DNA of 64,000 bases from a bacterium (lineage in GTDB: Bacteria; Patescibacteriota; Patescibacteriia; S139-126): NCBI GenBank assembly GCA_030666865.1, contig DAOUWZ010000002.1, positions 24,691-88,690 of the forward strand, read 5' to 3'. Within the stretch, counting starts at the first letter, position 1. Each line of letters begins with the position of its first letter. The translations under genes were made by a program, and so were the position numbers. The notes below the pieces were generated by a model. It was given only the letters and a program-made list of their open reading frames with translations, was not told the origin of the DNA and did not search any database. This document shows, piece after piece, positions 26,198 to 42,485 of this stretch.

Positions 26198-27436
26198 CTA
26201 TATAAATTCTCTTTCCAATTTAACCAATCGATTATATTTAGCCACTCTTTCTGCCCGAGCAGGCGCTCCTGATTTGATATATTCGGCTCCAACAGCTAAC
26301 GCTAAATCAGCAATAAAATCATCTGGGGTTTCACCACTACGATGTGATATTACAACTTTATAATTATTCTTTTGAGCAAGCTTTATAGCAGATATAGTTT
26401 CTGAAACAGTTCCGATCTGATTTAATTTTATCAAAACTGAATTTGCTACCCCGAGTTCTATTCCTTTTTGCAAACGTTTATAATCTGTAACAAATAAATC
26501 ATCACCTACTTGCATAATCTTATCAGATATTTTCTTAGACTGTAATATCCAACTATCCCAATCATCTTCACCAAACCCATCTTCAATTGATATTATTGGA
26601 TATTTTTTTATCCACTTTTTATACAAAGATATCAAATCTTTAGCTGTAAATTTTTTATTTTCAAATTTATACTTTCCCCCATCATAAAATTCTGAAGCCG
26701 CCACATCCATTGCTAAAAAAACATTTTTTCCAGGTAAATATCCAGCTTGTTTAATAGCTTTAAGTAACAATTTTAGAGCATGCTCATTATTTTTCAATTT
26801 TGGTGCAAATCCACCTTCATCGCCTAATCCAGTACTTAAACCATTTTTATTTAAAATATTTTTTAGCTCATGATATATTTCTGATCCTGCCCTCAATCTC
26901 TCTGCAAATGATACCAATTTCGGAACAATCATAAATTCTTGAATAGACAAATTATTATCTGCGTGTCTACCACCATTAAGGACATTCATCATTGGATAAG
27001 GAAAACCTATTTTTTTTGGAAATGAATAAACATTTTGCAAATACTTATACAAAGACATTTTATTTTCATATGCCACTGCTCTGGCAAATGCCATAGAAAC
27101 CCCAAGAATTGCATTTGCTCCAAGATTTTTTTTATTCTTTGATCCGTCAATTGCGCACAATTCATAATCAATATCAATAATATCTTTAAAATCTTTACCT
27201 CTTAACTTCCTATTCAATACCACATTAATATTCTTAACCGCCTTGGTTACTCCCATGCCTTTATATCTCTTTCCCCCGTCTCTTAACTCTAATGTCTCAT
27301 GACGACCGGTTGATGCCCCTGACGGAACACCAGCTGTAGCTTTAATGCCAGTTGCAAGTGTTACCGTAGCAGCAATTGTCGGGTTGCCACGTGAATCCAA
27401 AATTTCCAAAGCAGTAATTTTTTTTATTTTCGGCAT
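26198..27436 (-). CDS. eno: Enolase.
   Basis: ITALEILDSRGNPTIAATV together with the enolase signature regions. Confidence 0.9.
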   Translation of the reverse strand: MPKIKKITALEILDSRGNPTIAATVTLATGIKATAGVPSGASTGRHETLELRDGGKRYKGMGVTKAVKNINVVLNRKLRGKDFKDIIDIDYELCAIDGSKNKKNLGANAILGVSMAFARAVAYENKMSLYKYLQNVYSFPKKIGFPYPMMNVLNGGRHADNNLSIQEFMIVPKLVSFAERLRAGSEIYHELKNILNKNGLSTGLGDEGGFAPKLKNNEHALKLLLKAIKQAGYLPGKNVFLAMDVAASEFYDGGKYKFENKKFTAKDLISLYKKWIKKYPIISIEDGFGEDDWDSWILQSKKISDKIMQVGDDLFVTDYKRLQKGIELGVANSVLIKLNQIGTVSETISAIKLAQKNNYKVVISHRSGETPDDFIADLALAVGAEYIKSGAPARAERVAKYNRLVKLEREFI

Positions 27437-27452
27437 AATATTTTTATTTCAA

Positions 27453-27968
27453 TTATTTATTAACTACTTTTATAACATCATCACTATCATACTGATTTTG
27501 TCCTACTCCATTTGCGCCAAACGATCCTACTACCACAGAATCAAAACAACCACCTCCGCCATCGCAAGGTTCATTATCTAAATTGATTTCGTAATCGGTA
27601 TCAAAAAAATAATTATTTCCCCATGGATCAGAAGGAATACTAAGCATATATGCTCCAGCCCAATTTGAAAACAATCCATCAGTTTGGGTTATACCTGATG
27701 ATTGAGTAGTCAAGTCCCACACTTCATTATTAGCGCCAGTATTGACTTGATCAGGAATTTGATGCCCTGGCCATTCGCCAGTGTCTATCATTAATTGCCC
27801 AATAGCAGAATAAATAACATCTATATCTTGTTGAGCTTTAGCAATTTTCGCTTTACTTCTAGCATTATTAACTGCAATCATAGTTATACTTGACAACAAA
27901 CCTATAATCCCGATAACAACCAATATTTCTATTAAAGTAAATCCTGATTTATTAAACTTATTTTTCAT
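27453..27968 (-). CDS. Type IV pilin / pseudopilin (prepilin-type N-terminal cleavage/methylation domain).
   Basis: The class III signal KSG|FTLIEILVVIGIIGLLSSI. The gene is embedded between eno and pgk. Confidence 0.75.
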   Translation of the reverse strand: MKNKFNKSGFTLIEILVVIGIIGLLSSITMIAVNNARSKAKIAKAQQDIDVIYSAIGQLMIDTGEWPGHQIPDQVNTGANNEVWDLTTQSSGITQTDGLFSNWAGAYMLSIPSDPWGNNYFFDTDYEINLDNEPCDGGGGCFDSVVVGSFGANGVGQNQYDSDDVIKVVNK

Positions 27969-27980
27969 AATTAAAACTGT

Positions 27981-29171
27981 TTATTTTAATAAAGGCTTTA
28001 AGCCTGGTAAATTCTTTTTTTCCAAAAAATCCAACATGGCACCGCCTCCAGTTGAAATATAATCAAAACTGGCAAACAAATTCATATCTTGAATAAGCCA
28101 AACAGTTTCTCCACCACCTAAAACTGTAAAACATTTACGTTTTGACCTAGCCGCTATTAATTCGGTCAAAGCTCTAGAAGCATGGCTAGATTTTTTATCC
28201 TCAACAATTCCCAGTGGACCATTCCAAAAAATAGTTTTAGCTTGTTTTATTACATCTGACCACTCAAGTACTGTTTTAGTACCAATATCAATAATCCTAT
28301 CATATTGCTTAATATCAATAAGATCTTTTTGACAAGCTTCCAATTTTTTTGTTTTCACATCATCAACCGTGACATCTGTAGGAATAATTATTTTTTTTGA
28401 ATATTTCTTATACAGTTGCTTTACTTCAGTCATCATATCCTTTTCTACCAATGATTTACCAACCTGATTGCCAGCAGCGGCAATAAAATTATTAGCCAGC
28501 CCCCCGCCAATCAATAAATAGTCAACTTTTTTAGCAATGCTATCGATCAACTTCACTTTTGTTTCTATTTTTGCGCCACCCAACACGACTACTAAAGGTT
28601 TTTTTGGTTTAGAAAAAAATTTAGTTAATTGTTCGACCTCTGACAAAATTAGCAAACCGGCATAACTCGGCAAATATTTTGTTATAGCGACCAAAGATGC
28701 CGCCCTTCGATGAGAAACAGCAAAAGCATCATTAATAAAAATATCACCCAAAATTGCAAGGTCTTTAGCAAATTTATCAGAATTTTTTTCTTCACCAATA
28801 TGAAATCGCAAATTTTCCAATAAAACAATATTCCCATTATGCATCTTATCAAGATGCTGCTCTACTTTTTTTCCTATACAATCATCCAACTTCACAATCT
28901 TTCTTTTAAGTAGAGTTGTCAGTCTTCTAGCAATCGGAGTAAGTCTTAAAGATTTATTTTTTTTACCATGAGGTCTGCCTAAATGAGATAATAGAATTAC
29001 TTTTGCACCTGCTTTTGTTAAATAGTCTATAGTTGGTAACACTCGTCGCAGACGAAAATCTTCACAACCATCTACTTCTAAATTATCACCTAAACTAACA
29101 TTAAAATCTACCCTGAGTAACACTCTTTGCCCTGCCAAATTTTTTATCTGTTTTATTGATTTTAATTTCAT
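27981..29171 (-). CDS. pgk: Phosphoglycerate kinase.
   Basis: N-terminus VLLRVDFNV, full length at 396 aa. Confidence 0.9.
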   Translation of the reverse strand: MKLKSIKQIKNLAGQRVLLRVDFNVSLGDNLEVDGCEDFRLRRVLPTIDYLTKAGAKVILLSHLGRPHGKKNKSLRLTPIARRLTTLLKRKIVKLDDCIGKKVEQHLDKMHNGNIVLLENLRFHIGEEKNSDKFAKDLAILGDIFINDAFAVSHRRAASLVAITKYLPSYAGLLILSEVEQLTKFFSKPKKPLVVVLGGAKIETKVKLIDSIAKKVDYLLIGGGLANNFIAAAGNQVGKSLVEKDMMTEVKQLYKKYSKKIIIPTDVTVDDVKTKKLEACQKDLIDIKQYDRIIDIGTKTVLEWSDVIKQAKTIFWNGPLGIVEDKKSSHASRALTELIAARSKRKCFTVLGGGETVWLIQDMNLFASFDYISTGGGAMLDFLEKKNLPGLKPLLK

Positions 29172-29269
29172 TCTTTTTGTTTAATATCCCTTCGTCCCGC
29201 TCAGCGAGACTTCGCTTTTCTATTTCTGTCTATTAATTAGTGTATTTATCAATTAGCTATGGGGTATTA

Positions 29270-29293
29270 CCTGCCTGCCTGCAGGCAGGCAGG
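29270..29293. repeat. Family A copy 4, the perfect 24-nt palindrome cctgcctgcctgcaggcaggcagg.
   Basis: Read directly from the sequence. Confidence 0.8.
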
Positions 29294-29424
29294 TACAAAT
29301 TTATTAAGTAATTGAATTTAAAATTTTTTCTACCTGCTCTTTATCAACTTTTTTTATTATAATTATATATTACCATAACTCAATTTTTTTTAATACTCTC
29401 AATTTTATAGAAAAATACATATTT

Positions 29425-29943
29425 TTAAATTGCATACAAATTAATAGGGACTCCGTTGTTACCTGATTTTTCTTTTTTTATTAAATTCAAATCGGCAATA
29501 GAAAAGGTATAAGATATAATTTTAGTACCGCTGTCACATTCTTTTTTTATTTTTTGACTTAATCTGCTGAACGCTTTCCTAGTCAAACCATAAACAAAAA
29601 ATTTATTATAGTCACTAAAGTCGCATTTAAAAAAATCTCTATTTTTTAATTCTATATTCTGACAGCCAAAAAAAATTTTTTTACTATAAGTTATCAAAAA
29701 CAACGGCCAAGCAATTTCAATACCAACAAAATTTGTTTGCGGATATTTTTTCGCCAAATAAACAAGTAAACTGCCTGTACCACAACCAACATCAACAAAA
29801 TTATCGCCTTCTTTCAATTTTGCTAATTTATCAATTCTGCTAAAATCTTTTCTTCTAGTAGGCACCCATGGAGCCATAGATATTGCCCCTCTAGACATCC
29901 CAAATAAAACTAAGATTATAATAATCAAAACTATCCAAGTCAT
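29425..29943 (-). CDS. Small membrane-anchored class I SAM-dependent methyltransferase.
   Basis: An N-terminal TM segment and SAM motif I (VDVGCGTGSLLVYLAKKY). Confidence 0.55.
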   Translation of the reverse strand: MTWIVLIIIILVLFGMSRGAISMAPWVPTRRKDFSRIDKLAKLKEGDNFVDVGCGTGSLLVYLAKKYPQTNFVGIEIAWPLFLITYSKKIFFGCQNIELKNRDFFKCDFSDYNKFFVYGLTRKAFSRLSQKIKKECDSGTKIISYTFSIADLNLIKKEKSGNNGVPINLYAI

Positions 29944-30005
29944 GCGTTAAAAATTTTTTTATTATCAACTACCATTAACTAATTTTTTCAATTTATTAAT
30001 AAAAT

Positions 30006-31715
30006 TTACCAGCTTCCTCCTCCGCCACCACCAAAACCACCGCCAGAAAATCCTGAGCCGCCAGAACCAGTGCCACCCCGAGCTGCTGCAGAAAAACCAC
30101 TATTTACATTAGTAGTAAAACCAGATAAATCATCAATCAAGCTCAAAGCTATCAAATTACCTGTCATACCTCCTTCATACCATGTAGGCGGCTCAATATA
30201 CATATCAGCAAACTGCTTGGCCCATTTTTTTTCAACTCCCATCGCTATTGCAAACGGTAAAAATTTCATAAACTGTTTAGGATCCTTTTCCGGAGCATTA
30301 TGAAATTCTAACCGATCTTTGTCAGTCACAGCCAAAAATTCTTTAAAACCTAGAATACTTTCTTTTGTTTCAGCTCCATGTTTAGTCTTTTTGCTCATTA
30401 TCCAGCCAAAACCCATAATGATAACTCCTGATACAATCAAAGCTACAATGCCCGCGCCAAACCAATCTCCTAAATATATTGCCAAGAAAATTATACCGAT
30501 TCCGAGTCCCATGTACAAACCTCTGACTTTCTCAGGATTTTTCTTATAATACCCTTTTAGAACCATTTCTTCATTTATATCTCTTTTGAATAACTTTATT
30601 TTCTTGCTCATACTAACATCTTTTTTTATTTTTGACATCTTTTTTTTACTTCCAGAAATTGCATTATTACCAAAAATAATTTCACCAATATCTTTTTCAA
30701 TTTTACTATTTATTTCACCAATATCTTTTAATAATATCAACTCATAATCTTTGCCAGAAAACACGCTTTGCTTCTCTATTTTTTTAATTTTTAGAAAACC
30801 TTGCTGAGCCAAATAAATAATGCCAGCAGTAATATCTCGATTATCAACTTTTTCATCAATCAAAGATCCGAGGAGTGTCGGTTTTAAATCTTGCGGTGGA
30901 TGATATTCAGGAATGATAGTTCCTTTCCCTTTAGGATCTCGTCCTTTATAAAACCATAATAAAAACATAAATACAAAAACCAATACCGGCAATGCAATTA
31001 TAAAATTATTTTTCAGCCATCTCATAAAAAAACTAAACTCACCTGGCTGATCTAAATAGCCCTTAGGCATACCAAAAGCAATTGTCATTCCTTCCTTAGG
31101 ATATAATTCTGATTTATTCTGAAAAATAGTAGTAAATCCATTTTCAATAAGACATTCTTCGTCAGAGCCATATTCCCCTTGATAGCATGACACTTGAATA
31201 TTTTCTTTGGAACCAGAATAAAAAATCTCTGCCCTAACATTTTTGATTGGTACTGGCCATTGATTTCCTGTCAAATTCCAATAAAATTCATCAAATTCAT
31301 CAAAATAATTAATCGCTCCTGTAACCTTATAAATAATTTCATATTTATTAAGACCGTCAACAAAAACTTCCGCTTGACCAATTTTTATTTCTTTATTTTT
31401 CCCTTTATTACTAACTTCATACATTTCTGGTTGTTCATTTCTCATAACATCTGAAACACTAATATCAATTTTCCTTTCCCCGAATTTGCCTTGATAGCTA
31501 ATCGGAATGTTCCGATAAATGCCATGCTTTTGCAAATTACCGAAATCATAAAAAATTGTTTCTTGAATAGTAATTGTGGCATCAGCATCAATCTTAATAT
31601 TTACTTGAAAATGAGTAATTTCTTCTGCACTTACCCAAAAACCAAAAAGTAGACTTATTAATCCAATTAAAAGACCTATTGCGACATGCCAAATTTTTAT
31701 ACTACCGCTTTTCAC
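30006..31715 (-). CDS. DUF2207-family membrane protein with a C-terminal Gly-rich tail.
   Basis: A signal/TM segment, then a large extracytoplasmic domain, then TM helices, then GGTGSGGSGFSGGGFGGGGGGSW. This architecture is typical of DUF2207. Confidence 0.5.
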   Translation of the reverse strand: MKSGSIKIWHVAIGLLIGLISLLFGFWVSAEEITHFQVNIKIDADATITIQETIFYDFGNLQKHGIYRNIPISYQGKFGERKIDISVSDVMRNEQPEMYEVSNKGKNKEIKIGQAEVFVDGLNKYEIIYKVTGAINYFDEFDEFYWNLTGNQWPVPIKNVRAEIFYSGSKENIQVSCYQGEYGSDEECLIENGFTTIFQNKSELYPKEGMTIAFGMPKGYLDQPGEFSFFMRWLKNNFIIALPVLVFVFMFLLWFYKGRDPKGKGTIIPEYHPPQDLKPTLLGSLIDEKVDNRDITAGIIYLAQQGFLKIKKIEKQSVFSGKDYELILLKDIGEINSKIEKDIGEIIFGNNAISGSKKKMSKIKKDVSMSKKIKLFKRDINEEMVLKGYYKKNPEKVRGLYMGLGIGIIFLAIYLGDWFGAGIVALIVSGVIIMGFGWIMSKKTKHGAETKESILGFKEFLAVTDKDRLEFHNAPEKDPKQFMKFLPFAIAMGVEKKWAKQFADMYIEPPTWYEGGMTGNLIALSLIDDLSGFTTNVNSGFSAAARGGTGSGGSGFSGGGFGGGGGGSW

Positions 31716-31731
31716 TTATTAAAATTAATAT

Positions 31732-32064
31732 TTAAATTTCTATTTCTTCAGAATTATGGTCTTCGGAATTTTCTTCATCTAAGCCATTATCTAATTCTAT
31801 TTCGTCATTAGCATGATTATTGATTTTTTTTTCTAGTTCTGGCTGAACTTTATTTGATTCTGACCTGATAACTTCACATTTTTCTTTTTTAACTGTACTT
31901 ATGCCCAGTATTTGATATAAACCACAAAAATTTATAAAACTAGTTATAGCTAAAATTATTGCCAAAATCCACCAATATGGCGAATGAAAAAATGCTAAAA
32001 CAACGAATAATAAAGCAAAAAATAATCTAATAAATCTATCAATTTTACCTATATTTTTTCTCAT
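31732..32064 (-). CDS. DUF2892 (YgaP-like) small membrane protein with an acidic C-terminal tail.
   Basis: IDRFIRL...AITSF.NFCGLYQILGIS resembles the DUF2892 consensus. Confidence 0.45.
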   Translation of the reverse strand: MRKNIGKIDRFIRLFFALLFVVLAFFHSPYWWILAIILAITSFINFCGLYQILGISTVKKEKCEVIRSESNKVQPELEKKINNHANDEIELDNGLDEENSEDHNSEEIEI

Positions 32065-32290
32065 AAAATTTTATTAATTTATTAAATATATATAAATTTT
32101 CCTATAAATATATTATACAGAATTAAAGGCCATTTTAAAAGAATTTTATATATCCTCATTAAAATAGATAATATTAATTTATCATCTTGAACATTTAACA
32201 TTTGAATTTTGGGCTTTTTGGTATTTGGATTTTCCTGCCTGTCTAGACGAATCGGCAAGACTCACAATAGTAACTAATTATACGACAAGT

Positions 32291-33883
32291 CTAATACGGT
32301 AATGTAAATTTAAATGTGGAGCCCTTGCCATAACCATCGCTTTCCGCCCAAATATTACCGCTATGTCCTTCAATAATTTTCTTAGCAATATAAAGCCCGA
32401 GCCCTACTCCGCTAGTATCTACTTTATTAATATCTTTGCCACGACGGAACTTATTAAATAATTCATCTAATTCTTCATAAGAAATTCCCCTACCAGTATC
32501 AGTAACACTAACTAAAACATATTTTTCCATCTTTTTAACCTCAATAACAATTTTCCCGCCATTAGGAGTATATTTTATTGCATTATCTATCAAATTCAAA
32601 ATAACATCAGTTACTTTATCACTATCACACGATGTGCTTATATCAGACTTTGTTTTAAATTCAATCTTAATATTTTTTTCCGTTGCTTCAATTTCTAAAG
32701 ATTTAATAATATCAGAAATTATATTATTAATATTCTGCTTGGTCTTAAGTATTTTTAAACGACCAGACTCAATTCTAGAAATATTCAAAAAGATATTTAT
32801 CAAACGAATTAATCTCTCCGAATTTCTCAACAAAACTCCGACAATATCATTTTGCTCTTTAGTCATCTTGCCATAATCACCATCTGACAACATAGACAAA
32901 TATCCTTTAATAGCCGATAATGGCGTTCTTAATTGGTGAGAAGTGATGGATAAAAATTCAGTTTTAGCTTCATCAAGTTTAGTCAATCTGGCATTAGCTT
33001 CTTGCAAAGCCGAAGTAATCTTTTTTAATTTTTTAACCTGTTTAATCTCTCTTAAAATACTTTTTACTAATAAAATACTAATAATAACTACAGCAACAAA
33101 CACTATTACATTAATTACTAACTCGGTATAAGTACTTGAAGTTAATACTTTTACTAACAAAAAAAATGATAAGAGCACGCTTAATAATTCAGATGCAATA
33201 ACTTTTATATTCATTAAATTATAACGTATAAGAGCGTAAACAAAGCTTAATATCAATGGAATATGAAACAAATGACCAAAACGAACAAAATTAGTTCTCT
33301 TAAAAAAAACAACTGATAAATAATTAAAAAATACCATTAAACTAAATGTCAATATCAAACCCGCTGCAATATATTTCCATTGTTTTTTCTCAAGACCTTC
33401 CGCTCTATAAAACCTCTTAAATAAATAAAAGAAAGAAAAAATTGTAAAAAAAATAATATATAGACCAAATACTGGCATTAATAAACCTTTTACCGGCTCT
33501 ATATTTTGATTGTTATAAACAACCGATTCAAATATTAGAGGTGTTAGAGATAACCCCATTAAAACAATGGTAATAAATATAGAGGAATAAAAAACCCATT
33601 TATTCCAAGTAATTTTTTTATCTGGGAATGTGTAAATAAATAAAAATAGTAAATATGTTTGCGGAATAGCAAATAACATAACTATTCTAATCCAAAATAA
33701 AGTAAATTCTGGATCACTATGCACAGAAAAAAAGTTATTTACGCCCCAAAATGTCAACGATAATACTAATAAAACAAAAAATATTTGATTAACATTCTTT
33801 TTCCCATAATAATACACAAAAATTACTAACGTTATATTAGATAATGCTGTGATTACTAAAGTTAAAAAATCAAAATTAAACAT
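32291..33883 (-). CDS. Sensor histidine kinase with a multi-TM (7TM-like) N-terminal domain. It is an orphan, with no response regulator adjacent.
   Basis: H-box SHQLRTPLSAIKGYLSML and a HATPase_c domain (DTGRGISYEELDELFNKFRRG...GVGLGLYIAKKIIEGHSGNIWAES). Confidence 0.8.
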   Translation of the reverse strand: MFNFDFLTLVITALSNITLVIFVYYYGKKNVNQIFFVLLVLSLTFWGVNNFFSVHSDPEFTLFWIRIVMLFAIPQTYLLFLFIYTFPDKKITWNKWVFYSSIFITIVLMGLSLTPLIFESVVYNNQNIEPVKGLLMPVFGLYIIFFTIFSFFYLFKRFYRAEGLEKKQWKYIAAGLILTFSLMVFFNYLSVVFFKRTNFVRFGHLFHIPLILSFVYALIRYNLMNIKVIASELLSVLLSFFLLVKVLTSSTYTELVINVIVFVAVVIISILLVKSILREIKQVKKLKKITSALQEANARLTKLDEAKTEFLSITSHQLRTPLSAIKGYLSMLSDGDYGKMTKEQNDIVGVLLRNSERLIRLINIFLNISRIESGRLKILKTKQNINNIISDIIKSLEIEATEKNIKIEFKTKSDISTSCDSDKVTDVILNLIDNAIKYTPNGGKIVIEVKKMEKYVLVSVTDTGRGISYEELDELFNKFRRGKDINKVDTSGVGLGLYIAKKIIEGHSGNIWAESDGYGKGSTFKFTLPY

Positions 33884-33910
33884 ATTGTTATAAAATAACT
33901 ATAACTTTTT

Positions 33911-35470
33911 TTAGTCAATAATCCAAGATTGCTTACCAGAACGAGAGAAATAATCAGAACTGTTATAATCCCAAAACTCAATTTTTGGAATTACTTTCTC
34001 GCCCATAGATTCAAACAGCTTATTAAATTCAAAATTTGTCTCTCTTAAATTTTTAATAATTATTTCTTGAATAGTATTTTTGATTTCATTATCAATTTTA
34101 ATATTTTCCATCAATTCAATATCTATTTTTAAATAAGAATTGTTGTTATTATCATACAATTTTTTCATAACAAATCTTCCAGAAATATATTTCTTAATAT
34201 AATCATCTTCTAAACCTTTTTTAATATTATCAGGATAGATTAATAATCCATATAAAATAACAGCTGACTTTTTCCCCTTCAATTCTAAAAATGGTAAGTT
34301 CCAAATAGACATTCTATTTTTAGAATTTTTATTTAGTATATTAACACCATTTTTATCTAATTTTTTTTTCATCCGCTCAAAAGAGACTACTCTGCCCTCA
34401 TCTTTAATATTATATCTTAATAAAGGAATACTGCCATCAGAAGAAAAAACTAATTCATTTTTAACTTGTTCAAAATATTTTGAAAGTGGATTATATTGGA
34501 ATAAACCAGGAATATTTACCGCCTGAAAAAATAATCTATTCTTTATTTCCTCATTAATTGTAGCTAATTGTCTTAAATAAATTGTTACTGGCGTTTCGTG
34601 TGCTAATATATTTGCATCAGCAGATCCATACAAACTAAAAGAATCATATATTTTATTACTACAACATGCTTTCTCCATTATTTCTAATCTCCAATTTTCA
34701 CTAAAACCCTCACCAGCAAATAAAAATTTAATATTAAACTTACTCCATTCAATATTATTTTTTAAACCCACATCAATAATATCTTTTAAAAAGGGGGGGT
34801 AACCAGCTAAAACTACTTGATCATATTTACCACCTAATTTACTTATCAAACTACTTGTTTCTTCAATACTGATTCCTGGGCTAATAACTGTTAAAGGATA
34901 ATTTTTTTGTGATAAACGCATACCACAATTTTGAGTAAGTACGCCAGCAACATACATGCCCATTGAAAAACATACTATCAATAAAGTACTTTTATTATTA
35001 ATCTGAAAAAATTCTTTAAATAATATTTCATGTTGCAAAGAAGCTTCAAATTCTTGCCAACTGGACCTAAACCAAAAAAATGGATCCCCGCTAGATCCTG
35101 AGCTAACAGAAATTATAGTCTGTTTATTAAAAGATCCTTGCCAACAGAGATCCTGTAATTGATATTTATTCAAGTAATTATTCTTATCAATCAAAGGCAC
35201 TTTTTGAAAATCATTCCAAGTAGCAATATCTTTATGATTGATATTATTTTTCTTCAAAAACTTTTTATAGGCTGGCACTTCTTCGGCAGCCCGATGAAAC
35301 AATTTAAGAAATTTTGTTTTTGCTTTGGCGACTAACTCTTCACTAGAAATATTCTCCAAATCTTTTTTAAAACTATCTGCATTATAACTATCAAAATCAA
35401 TAGTATAGTTTTGTGAATAATTCTTATCACTTAAAAAAAATTCTATGCCTTTAAAATTGTTCTTTTTCAT
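33911..35470 (-). CDS. Adenylate-forming enzyme, phenylacetate-CoA ligase / coenzyme F390 synthetase (PaaK)-like, ANL superfamily.
   Basis: SSGSSGDPFFW resembles the ANL/PaaK A3 motif (SSGTTGKP), and the length of ~520 aa fits. A 4-nt overlap with the upstream gene points to translational coupling. Confidence 0.5.
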   Translation of the reverse strand: MKKNNFKGIEFFLSDKNYSQNYTIDFDSYNADSFKKDLENISSEELVAKAKTKFLKLFHRAAEEVPAYKKFLKKNNINHKDIATWNDFQKVPLIDKNNYLNKYQLQDLCWQGSFNKQTIISVSSGSSGDPFFWFRSSWQEFEASLQHEILFKEFFQINNKSTLLIVCFSMGMYVAGVLTQNCGMRLSQKNYPLTVISPGISIEETSSLISKLGGKYDQVVLAGYPPFLKDIIDVGLKNNIEWSKFNIKFLFAGEGFSENWRLEIMEKACCSNKIYDSFSLYGSADANILAHETPVTIYLRQLATINEEIKNRLFFQAVNIPGLFQYNPLSKYFEQVKNELVFSSDGSIPLLRYNIKDEGRVVSFERMKKKLDKNGVNILNKNSKNRMSIWNLPFLELKGKKSAVILYGLLIYPDNIKKGLEDDYIKKYISGRFVMKKLYDNNNNSYLKIDIELMENIKIDNEIKNTIQEIIIKNLRETNFEFNKLFESMGEKVIPKIEFWDYNSSDYFSRSGKQSWIID

Positions 35471-36525
35471 TTATTTATAATAATATCTTCTGCTATTTTT
35501 TTTGCAATAAAATTAGGAGATAATTTTTCTAACTTTGAACGCTCTGCCACTTTTTTTAATATTACCTTAATATTTTCTATTCTTGCCAAAACTCTTTCTT
35601 TTTGATAACCACCTCCTTCAAATTGATCAACTATATTTATCAACCCTCCAGCATTAACAATAAAATCAGGCGCAAAAAATATTCCTTTGTTATATAACTC
35701 TTCTCCAATCATTTCTGATGACAATTGATTATTCGCCCCACCAACTATTATTCTTGTTTTCAACTCTTTAATACTGGTGTGATTAAATTCATCTCCTAAA
35801 GCACAAGGAGAATAGATATCAACTGGATATGTATGAATTTTTTTGTAATCAACAAATTCTATATTCGGATATATTCCTTTTATTCTATTTTCTACATCTT
35901 TATTAATATCCGCAACAATAACATTAGCATTATTCTCAATCAACAATCTTAACAACTCTCCGCCTAATTTGCCAACTCCCTTGATAGCCACTTTAATTCC
36001 ATCTAATTTTTCTACGCCCTTTAATTCTTTAACAACACCCTGTATTCCATAAAAAACTCCTAATGCAGCCATGTCGGATGTAGAAAATCTTTTTCCTCCA
36101 TCAGTAGAATGCCCTAAGATATATTTTGATTGTTGTGACATTATTTTAGTATCAGATTCATTGATACCAATATCTGGCCCGGTAGTAAATTCTCCCTGTA
36201 ATTTATCTACTTCTTGAACGTAAGCTTTTAATAACTCGCTATTCTTATTTTTTTGTTCTGAAATAATTACAGCTTTTCCTCCACCAAATTTAACTCCGGC
36301 TAAAGCGCACTTATATGTCATTGCTTTTGATAAATTCAACACATCTTTTACAGCTTCTTCATCCGTTTTATAATGCCATATTCTAGTACCACCAGTTGCT
36401 GGACCTAAATTTGTATTATGTATAGCAATATATCCTCTTAATCCTACTGTTTTATCTACAAAAAAAACCACTTTCTCATGATTATCATATTCTGAAAATT
36501 GTTTTATTTCTTCTATATTTAACAT
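35467..36525 (-). CDS. Glu/Leu/Phe/Val dehydrogenase family, NAD(P)-dependent amino-acid dehydrogenase (Leu/Phe-DH size class).
   Basis: AMTYKCALAGVKFGGGKAVI carries the catalytic-Lys glycine-rich motif, and GVGKLGGEL is the Rossmann motif. Confidence 0.7.
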   Translation of the reverse strand: MLNIEEIKQFSEYDNHEKVVFFVDKTVGLRGYIAIHNTNLGPATGGTRIWHYKTDEEAVKDVLNLSKAMTYKCALAGVKFGGGKAVIISEQKNKNSELLKAYVQEVDKLQGEFTTGPDIGINESDTKIMSQQSKYILGHSTDGGKRFSTSDMAALGVFYGIQGVVKELKGVEKLDGIKVAIKGVGKLGGELLRLLIENNANVIVADINKDVENRIKGIYPNIEFVDYKKIHTYPVDIYSPCALGDEFNHTSIKELKTRIIVGGANNQLSSEMIGEELYNKGIFFAPDFIVNAGGLINIVDQFEGGGYQKERVLARIENIKVILKKVAERSKLEKLSPNFIAKKIAEDIIINK

Positions 36526-37631
36526 TTCTTATTTATTATTTTATCCATACGAAATTCATACCTTCCCGAAGGCACTTCATAATTATTTGCAATTTGTCTG
36601 GCAAAATAACATAAAACCGCCCCCCTTAAAAATGAACACTCTGCCAATTGAGGTATGCCAGCAATTTTATTACCAATTAACGAGAATGATTCCTGTAGTC
36701 TTGTTACTAAATATTTAGCTCCAATAAAATCTTTTGCCAACTCTATCTTTTCTTTAATATCCCTAGGCTTATTATTTATTTTAGCAATAATATTGTTCTG
36801 CAAATATCCATTCATTATTTTTAAATCTTCATCAATGTCATACCTTTCTATATCAATGATTAAATTTTCACCATTGCCAGTAACCATTAAAACTGGAATC
36901 TTATATTTTTTTGCCTTTTCTCTTATATCAATTTTTAATTTTAAGTTATCAGTCTCTTCAATTAAAAGATCCAGCTTCGGATCTAATAAAAATTTTTCTT
37001 CATCACCGCTTATCACTCCTTGATCAAAAATATCAATTTTCATATATGGATCAATCTCAAATACTTGCCTGGCAGTCAATATTGCTTTATTTAAACCCAA
37101 TTCTGAAAGACTTGAACGAAAACGATTTAAATTTGATGCTGATAAAATATCAAAATCGGCAAACTTCATACATTTTGACCCGCCTTCTAAAGCAATACAG
37201 ACTGCAGCCGGATTTCCTACATTCAAACCTGCGATTCCGATTTTAAAATCTTTAAATTTTTTTTGCTCTGCTTTGGTAATTAATTTATTATTTCTAGAAA
37301 TCCTTAAATCATAAAAATCATCCTCGTCAATAATATGTACTATACAATTTTTCCACGGATAATAAATCCATTTGCCATCATAAAATTTTGTGGCAACACT
37401 CTCTTCTTTTAATTTATTGTTTTTAAATAGCAAAGATGGGTCTTTTATTAATTGTAATTCATTTTCAATTTCTGAATACTCGTCAACTATTTCATTAACA
37501 GTCCCCTCTTTTATTAATTTTATAAAAAAATTTTTATCTTTATTGTCAGACAAATCAAATATTACAGGCTGAAAAATATTTCTACCATTTTTATCTATCT
37601 TGCAATTATTGACTAATTTTTCTATTTCCAT
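36519..37631 (-). CDS. E1-like ThiF/MoeB/HesA family adenylyltransferase with a ~125-aa N-terminal extension.
   Basis: IGIAGLNVGNPAAVCIALEGG...DFDILSASNLNRF matches the MoeB/ThiF motifs GLGGLGSPAA...DDDVVSLSNLQRQ. A 7-nt overlap with the downstream dehydrogenase gene. Confidence 0.65.
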   Translation of the reverse strand: MEIEKLVNNCKIDKNGRNIFQPVIFDLSDNKDKNFFIKLIKEGTVNEIVDEYSEIENELQLIKDPSLLFKNNKLKEESVATKFYDGKWIYYPWKNCIVHIIDEDDFYDLRISRNNKLITKAEQKKFKDFKIGIAGLNVGNPAAVCIALEGGSKCMKFADFDILSASNLNRFRSSLSELGLNKAILTARQVFEIDPYMKIDIFDQGVISGDEEKFLLDPKLDLLIEETDNLKLKIDIREKAKKYKIPVLMVTGNGENLIIDIERYDIDEDLKIMNGYLQNNIIAKINNKPRDIKEKIELAKDFIGAKYLVTRLQESFSLIGNKIAGIPQLAECSFLRGAVLCYFARQIANNYEVPSGRYEFRMDKIINKKC

Positions 37632-37641
37632 ATTTCCTTTA

Positions 37642-38664
37642 TCAATTTTCTAACAAATTATCATTCAACAAAATTCGTGGTGTATGTTTCATTTTCCCGC
37701 GAATATTTCCTATACATAACAAAAATTGAGGCAACTCACTTGTATTCAATATTTCTTGTAAATTTTTTCGAAAATCTCCAATTTCAATACTGGCAACATA
37801 AATTGAAAAATCTAAATTATCTTTAATTATATTCAGCATTAAACGTTCTGACGAACGACCAGCTTCTAACCAGCTATATTTATCATCATTATTTGTAGTT
37901 AAAACATATATGCCAGGAGCAGATCTGATACTAAAATAATTTAGTTTAGATAAAATTCGACCAAAATTAAAATATGAAATTAAAACAGGGACAATAAAAG
38001 ATAACAAACCTGGCATTTTTAAAGAATAACCGGGCAAACCATCTTTTTTATTGGAAAAATTATTGTGCATCCAATTAGACATTTCTAGACGAAACTCCTT
38101 ATCACTATGAGCCATTTTCATCCCCTGAGAAGTTAAATCTGCAATTTTTTGAATATTATTTTTATTATTTACACATTTTAAATTTACGATTTCAGATGAT
38201 AATAATTTTTCATATTTTATTATAGTTTCTAAATTATCAACATAATTGGAAAAAATACCACGAGTATTTACTCTATTCGATATAGCTTCTAATAAATCTT
38301 TATATTTTTCATTTACTTCATCAGATTCGCTAAAAAAAACTTCTGCAACAAGATTTTCTTCACTATCAATTTTATACTTAATATCGCTATAAATTCCAAA
38401 ATATTTAGCAGCAATTATTAGATTTTCCAAAAAACATCCAATGCTAATATATAAATCTCTGCCTGTTGGATCAGCCTGTGGTAAAATTTTTGCAGGATTA
38501 ATATATACTTTGCAAGTATTATTTTTAATTTTATACAACCATGGCTGACTATTATGTGTTGACGGAGCTAAAATCGCATAATTTAAGATAAATCTTATTT
38601 TATCTTTTAAATCGCCTTCAGCTGGAAAATCATTTTTATTTAATTCCCAATTATTTAAGTTCAT
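37642..38664 (-). CDS. Nitroreductase-family flavoprotein, two-domain ~340-aa type.
   Basis: AILAPSTHNSQPW is the nitroreductase FMN-site motif. The length implies a tandem nitroreductase fold, as in SagB/Acg-type proteins. Confidence 0.65.
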   Translation of the reverse strand: MNLNNWELNKNDFPAEGDLKDKIRFILNYAILAPSTHNSQPWLYKIKNNTCKVYINPAKILPQADPTGRDLYISIGCFLENLIIAAKYFGIYSDIKYKIDSEENLVAEVFFSESDEVNEKYKDLLEAISNRVNTRGIFSNYVDNLETIIKYEKLLSSEIVNLKCVNNKNNIQKIADLTSQGMKMAHSDKEFRLEMSNWMHNNFSNKKDGLPGYSLKMPGLLSFIVPVLISYFNFGRILSKLNYFSIRSAPGIYVLTTNNDDKYSWLEAGRSSERLMLNIIKDNLDFSIYVASIEIGDFRKNLQEILNTSELPQFLLCIGNIRGKMKHTPRILLNDNLLEN

Positions 38665-38754
38665 TGTTTAGATTTATAACTTTATTATAACAAAAAAATA
38701 CTTTTTTCATAAATTAATCATTATTAATATATCTGCAAGTAAATTCCAATAAAC

Positions 38755-39291
38755 CTAAACCTTCCCTACAATTCTCAAATAAGTAATGCCAACACCATTA
38801 GCTAACAGCTCCTCTGCCGATATCCTTGGCAGAGATTTTTTATACCTCCACAAAATTTCTTGCTGTAATGCATTAATATCTTTGATGTGTGAAAATGAAT
38901 ATTGCCAAACATCAGCGTCAAGTTTTTCATAAGCAACACCCTCTTCAACATCTATACATTCGGCCATATAACAATTTTTAAAATCCAATAATGGTAATTG
39001 TTCATTTTTTTGATCAATAAAAAAACCAGGCTTAATTATTCTTGGCAAAGCATATAATTTACCTAGGCAATGTCCACTATATTCTAAATTAAAATGAGTA
39101 AATAAACCAATTGGCTCGGGAAAATTTTGATAATCTTTCTGATGTATTCTGATAATTCCATCTATTTTGTATGTCAGGCACGCATCAAAATTTGTAAGCA
39201 TTTTCTCCTGACCATCATTGTCTATGAACAAACACTTATCATTCAAACTTCTTTTTGTAAAAAATGGAATCATTATAGTTACCAAGATCAA
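38755..39291 (-). CDS. Hypothetical protein of 178 aa, the first gene of the accessory operon.
   Basis: An ORF only 3 nt downstream of gap. No family was recognised. Confidence 0.4.
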   Translation of the reverse strand: MILVTIMIPFFTKRSLNDKCLFIDNDGQEKMLTNFDACLTYKIDGIIRIHQKDYQNFPEPIGLFTHFNLEYSGHCLGKLYALPRIIKPGFFIDQKNEQLPLLDFKNCYMAECIDVEEGVAYEKLDADVWQYSFSHIKDINALQQEILWRYKKSLPRISAEELLANGVGITYLRIVGKV

Positions 39292-39293: not shown

Positions 39294-40292
39294 CTATTTG
39301 ACAAGTTCAATCATTTCTACCAAACGATTTGCATATCCCCACTCATTATCATACCAAGCAACAATTTTTACCATATCGCCATCGGTAACTTTAGTCAATG
39401 ATAAATCAACAATAGACGAAGCTGGATTGCCGATAATATCTGATGAGACCAAAGCCTCGTCAGAAACTTCTAAAATATTTTTATATCTATCAGTATTAGC
39501 AGCATCAATCAAAGCTTGGTTAACTTTTTCAACAGTCACTTTCTTTTTCAACAAAAATGTAAAATCAGCCAAAGAACCGCAAATAGTCGGCACCCTGACT
39601 GCTAAACCATCAAATATCCCTTTAAGTTCTGGTATAACTTGAGCAGTAGCGCTAGCTGCACCTGTAGTAGTTGGCACTATATTTGTTGCCGCCGCTCTGG
39701 CTCTACGCAAATCTCGATTCGGACCATCAACTAAATTCTGGTCAGCAGTATAAGAATGAATTGTGGTCATCGTGGCTTTTTTCACTCCAAAAATACTCTG
39801 CATAACCTGTGCCACTGGAGCTACACAGTTTGTGGTACAAGAAGCATTGCTAACTACATTATTCTTATTTTTCTTGTCAGAATTAACTCCTAGCACAAAA
39901 ATTGGAGTTTCTCCATCTTTCGGCGGAGCAGAAATAATTACACCGCGAGCCCCCGCTTTAATATGTAAATTTGCCATTTCAGTAGTTCGAAAAATTCCAG
40001 TACATTCAAGCACAAAATCAACATCCAGAGAACGCCATGATAAAGAAGCTGGATCTTTTTCTGAAAAAATTGCATACTGCTTACCATCAACCATAATATT
40101 CTTTTCATCATAAGATATTTCTTTATCATATTTTCCATAAACTGAATCATACTTCAATAAGTACACCAAAGCCTCAATATTACCCAAATCATTTATAGCC
40201 ACCACTTCCATATCATCCCTAGTTTGAATTATTTTGAAAGCAGCTCGGCCAATTCTGCCAAAACCATTTATAGCGATTTTAATTTTATCCAT
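39294..40292 (-). CDS. gap: Glyceraldehyde-3-phosphate dehydrogenase.
   Basis: INGFGRIGR and the active site SCTTNC. Confidence 0.9.
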   Translation of the reverse strand: MDKIKIAINGFGRIGRAAFKIIQTRDDMEVVAINDLGNIEALVYLLKYDSVYGKYDKEISYDEKNIMVDGKQYAIFSEKDPASLSWRSLDVDFVLECTGIFRTTEMANLHIKAGARGVIISAPPKDGETPIFVLGVNSDKKNKNNVVSNASCTTNCVAPVAQVMQSIFGVKKATMTTIHSYTADQNLVDGPNRDLRRARAAATNIVPTTTGAASATAQVIPELKGIFDGLAVRVPTICGSLADFTFLLKKKVTVEKVNQALIDAANTDRYKNILEVSDEALVSSDIIGNPASSIVDLSLTKVTDGDMVKIVAWYDNEWGYANRLVEMIELVK

Positions 40293-40311: not shown

Positions 40312-41094
40312 TTATTTTAATATATGTCTAATTATTTTATTGCCCTCGCTATCCAATTTTACATCAACAGCATTCTGTAAAAAATAACGAGATATTACCT
40401 TGCCACTACCTTCTGGTATTTTAATCTTTGTGCCAATTCTTGGTATTTTCTTATTTAATTCATCATACTGCTCATTTTCATAAGCCAAGCAACACTTCAA
40501 ACGACCGCAAATACCTGACAATCTATCCACTCCTCGATGAGCAATATTCTGTGTTTGAGCCATATCAGCCGAAACCTTGCCTAAAAATTTCAAATGCCCC
40601 TGACAGCACAATGCACAGCCACAATCACCAATATCACCATTTATTTTAGCTTCATCCCGAACACCAATTTGTTCAAGTCTTATATTGCCATGGTACCTTT
40701 TAGTAAGATCTTTTAAAAGATTGCGAAAATCTACTCTACCTTGAGCTATAAACGAAAAAATTAATTTTTCCTTGTCAAAAGAAAAATGAGCGTCAATTAA
40801 TTTCATAGACAAAGCATATTTTTTTACCAGCTCATGACAATATTCCAACGCTCCTTTTTCCGCAATATATATCTCTTTCAATCTATTGTTATCATCTTCG
40901 GTTGGCTTACCAATATATTCAACATATTCTCCGGAAAAATCTTTGGCAAAATCTTCTATAGAATCTACCTTGCCAATTTCTCTTCCCCATTCTGCTTTTA
41001 CTAATATTTTATCACCTACTTTAAAATCAGGATTATCAATTTTTATATAATACTTAGAATCCCAACAAACAAATTGTACACCCACTAATTTCAT
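40312..41094 (-). CDS. ricT: PSP1 C-terminal domain protein (RicT/YaaT-like).
   Basis: The Cys cluster CGCALCCQ...GICGRLKCCL is typical of the PSP1 domain. Confidence 0.7.
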   Translation of the reverse strand: MKLVGVQFVCWDSKYYIKIDNPDFKVGDKILVKAEWGREIGKVDSIEDFAKDFSGEYVEYIGKPTEDDNNRLKEIYIAEKGALEYCHELVKKYALSMKLIDAHFSFDKEKLIFSFIAQGRVDFRNLLKDLTKRYHGNIRLEQIGVRDEAKINGDIGDCGCALCCQGHLKFLGKVSADMAQTQNIAHRGVDRLSGICGRLKCCLAYENEQYDELNKKIPRIGTKIKIPEGSGKVISRYFLQNAVDVKLDSEGNKIIRHILK

Positions 41095-41108: not shown

Positions 41109-41795
41109 CTAGTTAATAACAGTTCCTAAACTCTTATTTTTTAACAATTTTTCCATACAACCTCTATTCCACTTAAATATACGCATGTTTAAATCATTGT
41201 CTCTGGCCAAAGCAAAAGCTGTCTGATCCATAACATTTAAACGATCCTTGAGTATTTGATCGTAAGTTAATTTATCATATTTTTTAGCGTTTCGAAACCT
41301 TTCTGGATCTTTATCATAAACACCATTTACTTTTGTCGCTTTCAATAAAACATCCACGCCAAGCTCCAAAGAAAAAACTACTGAAGCTGTGTCAGTAGAA
41401 AAATATGGCAATCCAGTTCCGCCAAATATTAAGACCATACCTGATTCATAATCCTGTTTAGCTCTTTCTGGTTGATGATGTGTTCCGACTTGAGAAATAT
41501 TTAAAGTAGAATCCAAAACCGCCTGAATTCCCAAACTTTCCAAAGTTGCTTTCAAAACCAAACCATTGGTCACCGCGCCGCACATACCCGCATAGTCAAG
41601 AATAGTCCGATTCAAATCTGCTTTAATTCTGCCGCCGCGCATAATATTGCCAGCCCCAACAACGACTGCGACTTTTTTTTTCTTAGCTGTCAAAACTTTT
41701 ATCTCTTTTGCTACTTGTAAAACCTTTGAGATATTGATGGCATCACCGCCTTTTTGAAAAAATTCTCCGGAAATTTTCAATAATATTCTATTCAT
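41109..41795 (-). CDS. pyrH: UMP kinase.
   Basis: ILLKISGE...AVVVGAGNIMRG, in the conserved pyrH position downstream of tsf. Confidence 0.85.
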   Translation of the reverse strand: MNRILLKISGEFFQKGGDAINISKVLQVAKEIKVLTAKKKKVAVVVGAGNIMRGGRIKADLNRTILDYAGMCGAVTNGLVLKATLESLGIQAVLDSTLNISQVGTHHQPERAKQDYESGMVLIFGGTGLPYFSTDTASVVFSLELGVDVLLKATKVNGVYDKDPERFRNAKKYDKLTYDQILKDRLNVMDQTAFALARDNDLNMRIFKWNRGCMEKLLKNKSLGTVIN

Positions 41796-41887: not shown

Positions 41888-42475
41888 TCATAAGCTATAT
41901 CTGACAAATTTATTAATTTTTATATTCTCACCGATTTTTGCTATGCTGGCAGTCAACAATTTTTCTATGGTTAATGAATCTTCCTTAATATAACTTTGCC
42001 TCAAAAGACATGTGCCGGCGTAATACTTTTCCAATTTACCTTCAATTATCTTTTCGATAATATTAGCTGGTTTATCAGAATCTTTCATTTCTTCCCGATA
42101 GATGTCTTTCTCTTTATTTTTTTCTTCTTCTGGAACATTATCAGGGGATAAATATTTTGGATTCATAGCTGCTACCTGCATAGCTAAATTGTTTGCTAAC
42201 TCTTTAAACTGATCAGTCCTAGCTACGAAATCTGTTTCGCAATTCAAAGAAACCATAGCCGCCACCCTGCCATTAGCATGCAAATACATTCCGATCAAAC
42301 CTTCAGATGCATCACGATCAGATTTCTTAGCAGCAATCTTTTGTCCTTTTTTTCGAAGTAACTCTATTGCTCTGTCAACACTGCCATTGGCTTCAACCAA
42401 AGCTTGTTTGGCATCCATCATGCCAGCTCCAGTTTTATCTCTTAATTCTTTTACATCACCTGCTTTAATATCCAT
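41888..42475 (-). CDS. tsf: Elongation factor Ts. The track ORF runs to 42535, but the start is placed at MDIKAG.
   Basis: MDIKAGDVKELRDKTGAGMMDAKQAL is the canonical EF-Ts N-terminus. The longer ORF would overlap rpsB. Confidence 0.8.
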   Translation of the reverse strand: MDIKAGDVKELRDKTGAGMMDAKQALVEANGSVDRAIELLRKKGQKIAAKKSDRDASEGLIGMYLHANGRVAAMVSLNCETDFVARTDQFKELANNLAMQVAAMNPKYLSPDNVPEEEKNKEKDIYREEMKDSDKPANIIEKIIEGKLEKYYAGTCLLRQSYIKEDSLTIEKLLTASIAKIGENIKINKFVRYSL

Positions 42476-42485
42476 ATTTTTATAA

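Follow-up and report, generated by a model that had tools for sequence, protein, structure and literature searches.

In a 64-kb stretch of DNA from a bacterium (the window, by which we mean the whole of that stretch), the gap gene, encoding glyceraldehyde-3-phosphate dehydrogenase, and the pgk gene lie 10,122 bp apart, with nine open reading frames (ORFs) between them, all on the minus strand. How did the two genes come to be separated? A sequence-only reading of the locus had answered that a conserved glycolytic operon of the kind known from low-GC bacteria was split by an accessory insert, had no tpiA and carried an embedded pilin gene. We assigned gene identities from an ORF map combined with Pfam and NCBIfam profile scans. 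The number of intervening genes, nine, was exactly as that reading had it, and every gene from rpsB (43298) to the last phosphoglycerate mutase gene (22907) is indeed on the minus strand. The history that we favor is a different one. The layout rpsB-tsf / pyrH-PSP1-gap / interval / pgk-pilin-eno / gpmI-gpmI is likely the inherited core-chromosome order of a clade of Patescibacteria, and not a Firmicutes-type operon that was recently broken. Inside the interval, about 5.5 kb with four enzyme genes and the membrane sensor half of a histidine kinase was exchanged as a single block among related lineages.

The nature of the host bears directly on the question. Named homologues of pgk and of a ligase encoded in the interval were all labelled Patescibacteria (or simply 'bacterium'), and those of the pilin likewise except one (Kiritimatiellae); the labels included Uhrbacteria, Buchananbacteria, Falkowbacteria, Nealsonbacteria, Woesebacteria, Spechtbacteria and Wirthbacteria. 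Since nearly all of them are Patescibacteria, the source is an uncultivated bacterium that belongs to the candidate phyla radiation (CPR), and the frame of a low-GC (Firmicutes) operon does not fit it. An identical PGK was found in three further public assemblies, with its neighbours in the same order.

As a clade for comparison, we used nine metagenomic or metagenome-assembled loci with a pgk 54-67% identical to that of the window (L084, L085, L087, L089, L091, L092, L093, L126 and L166). Their order is pyrH-(PSP1)-gap-VKOR (opposite strand)-four enzymes-seven-transmembrane (7TM) histidine kinase-small ORFs-(DUF2207)-(methyltransferase)-pgk-pilin-eno, followed by two genes for cofactor-independent phosphoglycerate mutase (iPGM) and by DUF212-CAP-PCMT-NTP transferase-YceG. 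It was found in L084, L085, L087, L089, L091, L093, L126 and L166. In L092, which is basal or sister to L089 in a neighbour-joining (NJ) tree with moderate support, the four enzymes are absent and gap...VKOR...kinase-pgk-pilin-eno is retained. Yet the flanking enzymes and housekeeping proteins of the clade are only 54-75% identical to those of the window (67-75% for gap, the final gene of the pyrH-PSP1-gap run that comes after rpsB-tsf). This comparison shows that the intervening genes are ancestral in the clade relatives. The separation of gap and pgk is therefore no peculiarity of the window, and the same intervening genes in nine diverged relatives do not agree with an accessory insert of recent, strain-level origin. 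Some positions do vary. The slot after gap holds an ASCH-like ORF in the window species and the opposite-strand VKOR in every clade relative covering it. DUF2207 is present in L084 and L089 and absent from L085, L087, L092 and L166. The methyltransferase is the usual gene upstream of pgk, kept in L084, L085, L087, L091, L126 and L166. In two distant loci with an rpsB-tsf-gap-pgk-eno neighbourhood, L067 (labelled Uhrbacteria) and L010 (labelled Methylomirabilis), gap is adjacent to pgk or about 1 kb off, which indicates that the interval grew in an ancestor of the window's clade.

A possibility was that a horizontally acquired island of about 10 kb had recently split a canonical gap-pgk-tpi-pgm-eno operon, tpiA being lost meanwhile. 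Gap-pgk adjacency is common outside CPR, and the content of the interval varies among relatives (DUF2207 present or not, VKOR or ASCH-like ORF, L092 without enzymes, two cassette types). The interval genes are also AT-richer than the rest of the window, with a GC of 0.286 vs 0.332 (Mann-Whitney p = 5e-4) and a GC at third codon positions (GC3) of 0.202 vs 0.253 (p = 4e-3). We nonetheless regard such an island as very unlikely. Nine diverged relatives have this interval too, with the orthologous kinase in it, and pgk-eno-gpmI-gpmI is the CPR-type order, never accompanied by tpi in the CPR loci examined. Scans with Pfam and for tRNAs and repeats detected neither an integrase nor a transposase, no tRNA at the borders and, as to repeats, AT-rich chance ones only, and the sole tRNA gene of the window (812-886) is far from the interval borders. 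Codon usage was typical, the distance in relative synonymous codon usage being inside the range of other genes. Conserved synteny thus appears to have largely refuted the recent-island explanation. Two related candidates were rejected as well: a mobile element, because the borders are without repeats, integrase or tRNA, and an anti-phage defence island, because a PADLOC scan gave weak generic E1, HATPase and methyltransferase matches only.

Several points nevertheless weigh against inheritance. The lower GC of the interval could mean foreign origin instead of weaker constraint. Our trees were simple NJ trees with moderate support or no support values. In a scan of GTDB, pgk identity reached 44% at most among the matches listed, and closer genomes are possible. 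As a separate observation, three genes at 12998-18173, coding for a 332-aa hypothetical protein, a 931-aa PEGA-domain protein and a 255-aa hypothetical protein, are compositional outliers (GC 0.38-0.42 and GC3 0.36-0.39, vs about 0.33 and about 0.25 elsewhere). Judged by composition, foreign origin is more plausible for this region than for the gap-pgk interval.

Part of the insert idea survives, at a smaller scale. The whole of the roughly 10 kb is not recent, but lineages can exchange a sub-block of about 5.6 kb, which comprises the four enzymes and the sensor domain of the kinase. Exchange was seen in L087 and L126, whose gap, pgk and eno products are 90%, 80% and 81% identical and whose flanking DNA is 76-78% identical. 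In contrast, their four cassette enzymes are 25-38% identical only, and the order of the genes differs: oxidase-ThiF-dehydrogenase-ligase in L087, dehydrogenase-ligase-ThiF-oxidase in L126. Homology detected by blastn runs through pyrH-PSP1-gap-VKOR, ends 3 nt ahead of the first cassette gene, is missing for about 5.5 kb and comes back inside the kinase gene, at codons 282-289, to continue to the contig end. At the protein level, the 7TM sensor halves of the two kinases are 26% identical and their HisKA-HATPase cores 94%. Because homology breaks at the spacer upstream of the cassette and at the sensor/core junction (around codon 285), the enzymes and the sensor were exchanged jointly. Across the clade, sensor halves fall into four types: A in the window, L084, L085 and L087, B in L126 and L166, C in L089 and D in L092, which has no enzymes. 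Identity between types is 23-35%, whereas it is 52-65% within type A and 80% within type B. Kinase cores are 63-94% identical across the clade and track the housekeeping phylogeny. Among type-A relatives, cassette-protein identities rank roughly as flank identities do. A chimeric assembly does not account for type B, since L126 and L166 are independent assemblies and agree. Altogether, the four enzymes and the membrane sensor half were replaced as one block between related lineages, and the kinase core and the flanks were vertically inherited.

The same mosaic pattern defines the agr groups of Staphylococcus. In the comQXP pherotypes of Bacillus, the variation affects comQ, comX and comP, the last at its 5' end (PMC6334282). 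In comQXPA, in agr and in the window locus alike, the variable block spans the synthesis genes and the sensor part of the kinase gene, and the core is conserved. There are differences, however. The window locus lacks a precursor peptide, a response regulator does not adjoin it, its synthesis genes encode small-molecule enzymes, and the variation seen so far is between related species or genera (with about 77% identity of flanking DNA) rather than between strains of one species.

What would the exchanged enzymes do? The first of them is an Acg-family flavin oxidase (NF047509, 206.9 bits for a cutoff of 199; PDB 2YMV, Acg, E 1.4e-9), which also matches the C-terminal half of fusions between a ThiF-like protein and a flavin-dependent oxidase (FDO), the families PRK14851 and Rv1355c. 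It adjoins the ThiF-like gene, with a 10-nt spacer. The ThiF-like protein covers positions 7-340 of the 722 of NF005901, the Rv1355c family, with 281.9 bits (E 1e-83); this is under the full-length cutoff of 476, the protein being split and corresponding to the N-terminal half only. It keeps the ATP-binding motifs DxD, SNLNR and TDN, and its nearest PDB matches are ThiF-type. From these motifs and matches, it is predicted to be an adenylating/cyclizing enzyme that corresponds, as a split homologue, to the oxazolone synthase TrzS/Rv1355c in its N-terminal half. The amino-acid dehydrogenase matched best the ScyB-like tryptophan dehydrogenase model NF035922, with 301.7 bits, under the cutoff of 600. 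The 519-aa protein gave weak NCBIfam matches to F390 synthetase and PaaK and has the P-loop motif SSGSSGDP. Its AlphaFold2 model (mean predicted local distance difference test, pLDDT, 90.9) retrieved 4R1M and PaaK1 (2Y27) as best Foldseek hits (E about 1e-21, TM-scores 0.62/0.73), and the modelled structure points to a PaaK/aryl-CoA ligase fold and to an adenylate-forming ligase of the ANL superfamily. Homologues of this ligase are named 'phenylacetate--CoA ligase family' in several CPR phyla.

The cassette is not confined to this locus. In 73 metagenome loci with a ligase homologue, a ThiF gene was alongside in about 37, one for the oxidase in about 33 and one for a histidine kinase in about 27, in several gene orders; with the single exception of L126, these loci are outside the window-type glycolytic context. 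The kinase had been called an orphan. It has no receiver domain to go with it in the window, and Pfam scans of the ORFs revealed no response regulator there, so in this sense the term holds; but, given its presence near the ligase in about 27 of the 73 loci, the kinase is a regular component of a CPR-wide cassette and the usual partner of the enzymes. Incidentally, the same enzyme-kinase cassette is found a few kb from glycolytic genes in more distant metagenome loci, namely from tpi-pgk (L119, 421-12200), from gap (L131) and from iPGM (L117), which may be a coincidence or point to a wider association.

Analogous pairs of ThiF and oxidase make oxazolones. Rv1355c is TrzS, a fusion of ThiF cyclase and flavin oxidase that makes N-acyl tryptazolones, and TyzB/TyzC and OxzB are analogous (PMC12856293, PMC10404671, bioRxiv 10.1101/2020.06.11.147165). 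ThiF and FDO carry out oxazolone synthesis, and the systems studied always include an N-acyltransferase (PMC10404671, PMC12856293). With OxzAB of Pseudoalteromonas rubra, TyzABC and TrzAS of Mycobacterium tuberculosis, the window shares an FDO of the nitroreductase superfamily, next to a ThiF-like protein that matches the TrzS family over its N-terminal half. It differs from them in having a PaaK-fold ligase and an amino-acid dehydrogenase and no N-acyltransferase of the OxzA/TyzA/TrzA type, in an FDO whose highest score is with the Acg/Rv3131 group and not with the FDO-A group of TyzC/TrzS, and in the 7TM histidine kinase attached to it. Moreover, its host belongs to CPR, not to Proteobacteria or Actinobacteria. 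By analogy with OxzAB, TyzABC and TrzAS, the cassette would make a small molecule, most plausibly of the N-acyl-amino-acid/oxazolone type, the PaaK-like ligase taking the place of the acyltransferase. The co-exchanged kinase sensor domain would then detect the compound made by the cassette.

Tentatively, the block at 33031-38664 (about 5.6 kb) might be a small-molecule self-signalling module of CPR, quorum-sensing-like or serving partner recognition, with types A, B, C and D swapped by recombination in the manner of agr/comQXP pherotypes; this is more doubtful than probable. A number of facts count against it. Both the chemistry and the signalling role of the cassette would be drawn from analogy. 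Pfam scans of the window and the clade loci identified no N-acyltransferase, response regulator, transporter/exporter or precursor peptide with the cassette. The known FDO step requires O2, and an anaerobic life is assumed for many CPR bacteria.

The pattern of enzymes and sensor might also carry no meaning. The four genes would then be an ordinary catabolic set, for aromatic amino acids or aryl acids for example, and the kinase core would merely offer the nearest homology for recombination, which requires homology on the flanks. An ELFV dehydrogenase and a PaaK-type ligase do make a plausible pair for amino-acid or aryl-acid breakdown, and the absence of acyltransferase, precursor peptide, exporter and response regulator fits. 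We find this explanation unlikely, in view of three facts: a kinase follows the cassette in those roughly 27 loci of diverse CPR, in several gene orders; the sensor-half types (A, B, C and the enzyme-less D) match the adjacent gene content and the kinase cores do not; and pairs of ThiF and FDO are biosynthetic, not catabolic, in every studied case. A further idea, a ribosomally synthesized and post-translationally modified peptide system, was raised by a highly acidic, conserved ORF of 38-43 aa (MSNDDFMEEDN...DEDM) just 3' of the kinase in relatives, of which no instance occurred in 1.3 Mb of background loci. At this position, the window has instead a YgaP-type transmembrane protein with an acidic tail. 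The acidic ORFs as ThiF substrates were rejected, as they are confined to the clade, where they lie 3' of the kinase, and do not accompany the cassette in other places.

Turning to the glycolytic genes themselves, we surveyed gene order in 80 pgk-centred loci from GTDB species representatives. Outside CPR, gap is directly upstream of pgk in 36/58 loci and tpi directly downstream of it in 29/60; in CPR-labelled loci, gap is adjacent to pgk in 1/8 and tpi follows pgk in 0/8. The statement that gap and pgk are normally adjacent is thus right for the former group and not for the latter. In the Firmicutes-type operon (gapA-pgk-tpiA-gpmI-eno in Bacillus subtilis), an order seen in L004, L005, L007, L009, L011, L018, L019, L031, L040, L051, L056, L062, L069 and L079, the genes for GAPDH, PGK, iPGM and enolase are clustered on one strand, as they are in the window. 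In the window, however, gap is 10 kb from pgk rather than next to it, there is no tpiA and what follows pgk is a prepilin gene, eno comes before gpmI, and gpmI is duplicated. The sequence-only reading had counted a single gpmI; there are two tandem iPGM genes, 42% identical, and neither paralogue has lost a catalytic residue when compared with 1EJJ, the enzyme of Geobacillus stearothermophilus (formerly Bacillus). A tandem pair is also present in L023, L027, L090, L087, L089 and L166, which represent several Parcubacteria-type lineages.

The likeness is to a CPR/Parcubacteria-type cluster. L020, L023, L027, L067 and L090 have pgk, zero to two genes, eno and a single iPGM gene or a pair of them, and lack tpi; the window fits this pattern (pgk, at most two genes, eno, iPGM, often in tandem, no tpiA, as in L020, L023, L027 and L090). 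Between pgk and eno, those clusters have nothing, or membrane proteins of the SIMPL and Bax1-I types, whereas the window has the pilin. Compared with them, only the window's clade has the pilin at pgk/eno and, upstream of pgk, the kinase-bearing interval. In two other Patescibacteria, L020 (6412-7445) and L023 (5426-6448), pgk is directly preceded by two response-regulator genes and a short HisKA-like ORF, so that two-component genes beside pgk recur outside this clade.

The absence of tpiA from the block was borne out and extends to the 64-kb window. Searches for triosephosphate isomerase (TIM) by tblastn with the TpiA proteins of E. coli and B. subtilis gave a best E of 1.8, the PROSITE-type TIM motif was absent from all six frames of the window, and PF00121, a model that also takes in archaeal-type TIMs, matched none of the scanned ORFs of at least 90 aa in the window. 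Four ORFs (YceG, NTP transferase, CAP and DUF212) were labelled via the identical locus L001. Some CPR bacteria carry archaeal-type TIMs (PMC7304191). In a survey of about 1000 CPR genomes, TIM, GAPDH and PGK were essentially universal, rare absences being put down to incompleteness (PMC7304191), and a second study also found the three essentially universal in CPR (PMC8406219). A block without tpiA is normal for CPR-labelled genomes and is silent on the rest of the genome. Since TIM is essentially universal in CPR and CPR loci rarely have tpiA beside pgk, the gene probably lies elsewhere in this genome. Its position varies within CPR, as seen from L049 and L119, where tpi is immediately upstream of pgk. 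Alternatively, tpiA could be truly missing, leaving only the lower part of glycolysis from glyceraldehyde 3-phosphate (GAP) to pyruvate, fed by the pentose-phosphate pathway or nucleoside salvage, with no need to interconvert GAP and dihydroxyacetone phosphate. The lack of a TIM in 64 kb and, in the clade loci, at less than about 10 kb from pgk would agree with such a loss. We judge it quite improbable all the same: the window is a small fraction of the genome, TIM is near-universal in the genome survey cited above, and other CPR loci also lack tpi beside pgk while L049 and L119 have it there.

The type IV pilin gene between pgk and eno was confirmed as a prepilin gene. The protein scores above the cutoffs of the prepilin motif models (PF07963, N_methyl, 29.5 bits for a cutoff of 21.2; TIGR02532, 29.2 for 16.3) and of T2SSG (32.9 for 21); its leader is MKNKFNKSG / FTLIE (KSG / FTLIEILVV), followed by an N-terminal hydrophobic helix, and its PDB matches are pilins and GspG. 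With the GspG equivalog model TIGR01710 it reaches 63.9 bits, under the cutoff of 88.85, and by these scores it would be GspG-like rather than a GspG equivalog. It has in common with GspG and type IVa pilins the class III signal peptide (G-1, F+1, E+5), the hydrophobic N-terminal helix and a T2SSG domain with DPWGN. It departs from them in sitting in a glycolytic operon and not in a pilus or secretion operon: Pfam scans of the ORFs detected no pilus machinery in the 64-kb window, be it a secretin, an ATPase (PilB/GspE), a platform protein (PilC/GspF) or a prepilin peptidase.

All clade loci that extend over the position have this gene there, with pgk on one side and eno on the other. The sequence-only reading had itself named a pilin gene routine in this operon, and intervening genes ancestral in relatives, as evidence that would go against it, and both were observed. 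The pilin is 64-69% identical to its clade orthologues over the full length, a level equal to that of enolase, and its globular part keeps the motifs DPWGNNYF, PCxGGxGC and VGSFGPxGxGQN in relatives. Outgroup Patescibacteria have homologues with 54-55% identity in other contexts (HtrA-pilin-prfA and sigma factor-x-pilin-DUF1653), which indicates that placement in the operon is a shared derived trait of the clade. A database protein of 567 aa (P0014) bears both PGK and N_methyl domains, and on that ground the gene might have been an artefact, a pseudogene or part of a PGK-pilin fusion. This is extremely improbable. The contig of P0014, L091, is full of frameshifts, with eno, iPGM and PCMT each in pieces, and the fusion was rejected as a frameshift artefact; the other loci have separate intact ORFs with the canonical G / FTLIE site and full-length conservation.

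In the window, the pilin gene starts 12 nt past pgk and ends 16 nt ahead of eno. In all clade loci, the pgk-pilin gap is at most 12 nt or an overlap, and the pilin-eno gap at most 17 nt or an overlap. Spacers this short leave no space for separate promoters or terminators, and we infer co-transcription and translational coupling: pgk-pilin-eno would be one translationally coupled transcription unit, with the pilin made along with glycolytic enzymes. The rest of the block may be organized differently. Spacers are at most 27 nt except six, which come after tsf (92 nt), the ASCH-like ORF (90 nt), the kinase (226 nt), DUF2207 (62 nt), the methyltransferase (253 nt) and eno (108 nt); the one after tsf has a strong hairpin and a U-run. 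The larger spacers (90, 226, 253 and 108 nt) would separate several transcription units rather than belong to one gap-to-gpmI operon. A single gap-to-gpmI transcript is also unlikely because relatives have the opposite-strand VKOR after gap and because only 18-52 nt precede pgk in them, vs 253 nt in the window. This map comes from spacer lengths and a few hairpins. Promoter scans did not help it: promoter-like sites were no commoner than in shuffled sequence, and the extended -10 motif TGnTATAAT was not enriched.

The 253-nt spacer before pgk contains a 28-nt palindrome and has a fold z-score of -4.8. A GC-rich palindromic motif (CCTGCCTGC/GCAGGCAGG) is repeated in intergenic spacers and forms stable hairpins; with at most one mismatch, it has 27 matches in the window, vs 4.0 +/- 2.2 in shuffled sequence. 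It looks like a dispersed element of the repetitive extragenic palindromic (REP) kind in an AT-rich genome.

Among the remaining genes, the ORF after gap belongs to a family of 240 representative clusters with no Pfam model. Its position, and fusions to the C-terminal half of transketolase in a pentose-phosphate operon, had brought up a TPI or another sugar-phosphate isomerase; this was rejected on a confident structure model with an ASCH/PUA-like fold. In L169 (4216-5748), a member of the family and the C-terminal half of a split transketolase form one fused gene, in the order zwf-pgl-pgi-rpiB-tktN-[ASCH::tktC], and fusions with GATase and DUF952 were also found. Core chromosome makes up the remainder of the window (mraZ-mraW-ftsL-PBP-murE, rplJ-rplL, rpmE-prfA-prmC, rodA, dnaE, thrS). 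At 461-886, a GIY-YIG nuclease-domain ORF (110 aa) adjoins the sole tRNA gene, tRNA-Glu(CUC).

Table. Position of genes and other features in the window, and of the acidic ORF in relatives
Feature	Position	Strand	Basis or remark
rpsB	42486-43298	-	Pfam/NCBIfam scan
tsf	41888-42535	-	Pfam/NCBIfam scan
pyrH	41109-41795	-	Pfam/NCBIfam scan
PSP1-domain gene	40312-41094	-	Pfam/NCBIfam scan
gap	39294-40292	-	Gp_dh_N E 8e-38, Gp_dh_C E 2e-57
ASCH/PUA-fold ORF	38755-39291	-	172 aa from ATG at 39273 (178 aa full ORF); no family match
Acg-family flavin oxidase, 340 aa	37642-38664	-	Nitroreductase superfamily; first gene of exchangeable cassette
ThiF-like enzyme, 370 aa	36519-37631	-	NF005901
ELFV amino-acid dehydrogenase, 352 aa	35467-36525	-	Pfam ELFV_dehydrog_N and ELFV_dehydrog
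PaaK-fold ligase, 519 aa	33911-35470	-	No Pfam match; fold from predicted structure
Histidine kinase (530 aa), 7TM sensor half	33031-33883	-	HisKA_7TM, residues 9-226
Histidine kinase, HisKA and HATPase_c core	32291-33030	-	Pfam
YgaP-like_TM protein (formerly DUF2892), 110 aa, acidic C-terminal tail	31732-32064	-	PF11127
DUF2207 membrane protein, 569 aa	30006-31715	-	PF09972, PF20990
Small S-adenosylmethionine-dependent methyltransferase, 172 aa, Methyltransf_4-like	29425-29943	-	Pfam and NCBIfam
28-nt perfect GC-rich palindrome	29268-29295	.	REP-like, in spacer before pgk
pgk, 396 aa, not fused to tpi	27981-29171	-	PF00162 E 4e-127
GspG-like type IV prepilin, 171 aa	27453-27968	-	N_methyl and T2SSG
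eno (enolase)	26198-27436	-	Enolase_N and Enolase_C
iPGM paralogue 1, 524 aa	24515-26089	-	TIGR01307; tandem-pair scores 530.9 and 643.1 bits
iPGM paralogue 2, 532 aa	22907-24505	-	TIGR01307; tandem-pair scores 530.9 and 643.1 bits
Palindromic motif sites	29268-29295, 2435-2454, 20869-20892, 12815-12823, 7017-7097, 354-394, 32234-32242, 54718-54726		
Acidic ORF in relatives	L085 8702-8830, L087 8858-8983, L089 8027-8158, L126 10976-11104, L166 7602-7718		

The literature that we searched contained no description of a locus in Patescibacteria at which enzymes and a sensor half are exchanged. The locus is new as a mosaic block of cassette plus sensor that resembles both oxazolone synthetases and pherotype loci. 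CPR bacteria are generally credited with hardly any secondary metabolism or signalling, and the swap of cassette and sensor is a concrete candidate for communication by small molecules within this large radiation, which is uncultivated. If the proposed chemistry is true, oxazolone-type synthesis would extend past Proteobacteria and Actinobacteria. As for the glycolytic genes, expectations drawn from the Firmicutes operon do not transfer to Patescibacteria, in which the split, tpiA-less and pilin-bearing layout is mostly an ordinary, lineage-specific gene order. The pilin fixed between pgk and eno throughout the clade suggests a constitutive output of pilus subunit along with the core ATP-yielding pathway in episymbionts. 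Eventually, if the block is a signalling module, its fixed place beside pgk-pilin-eno would link signalling, pilus production and energy metabolism in these ultra-small episymbionts.

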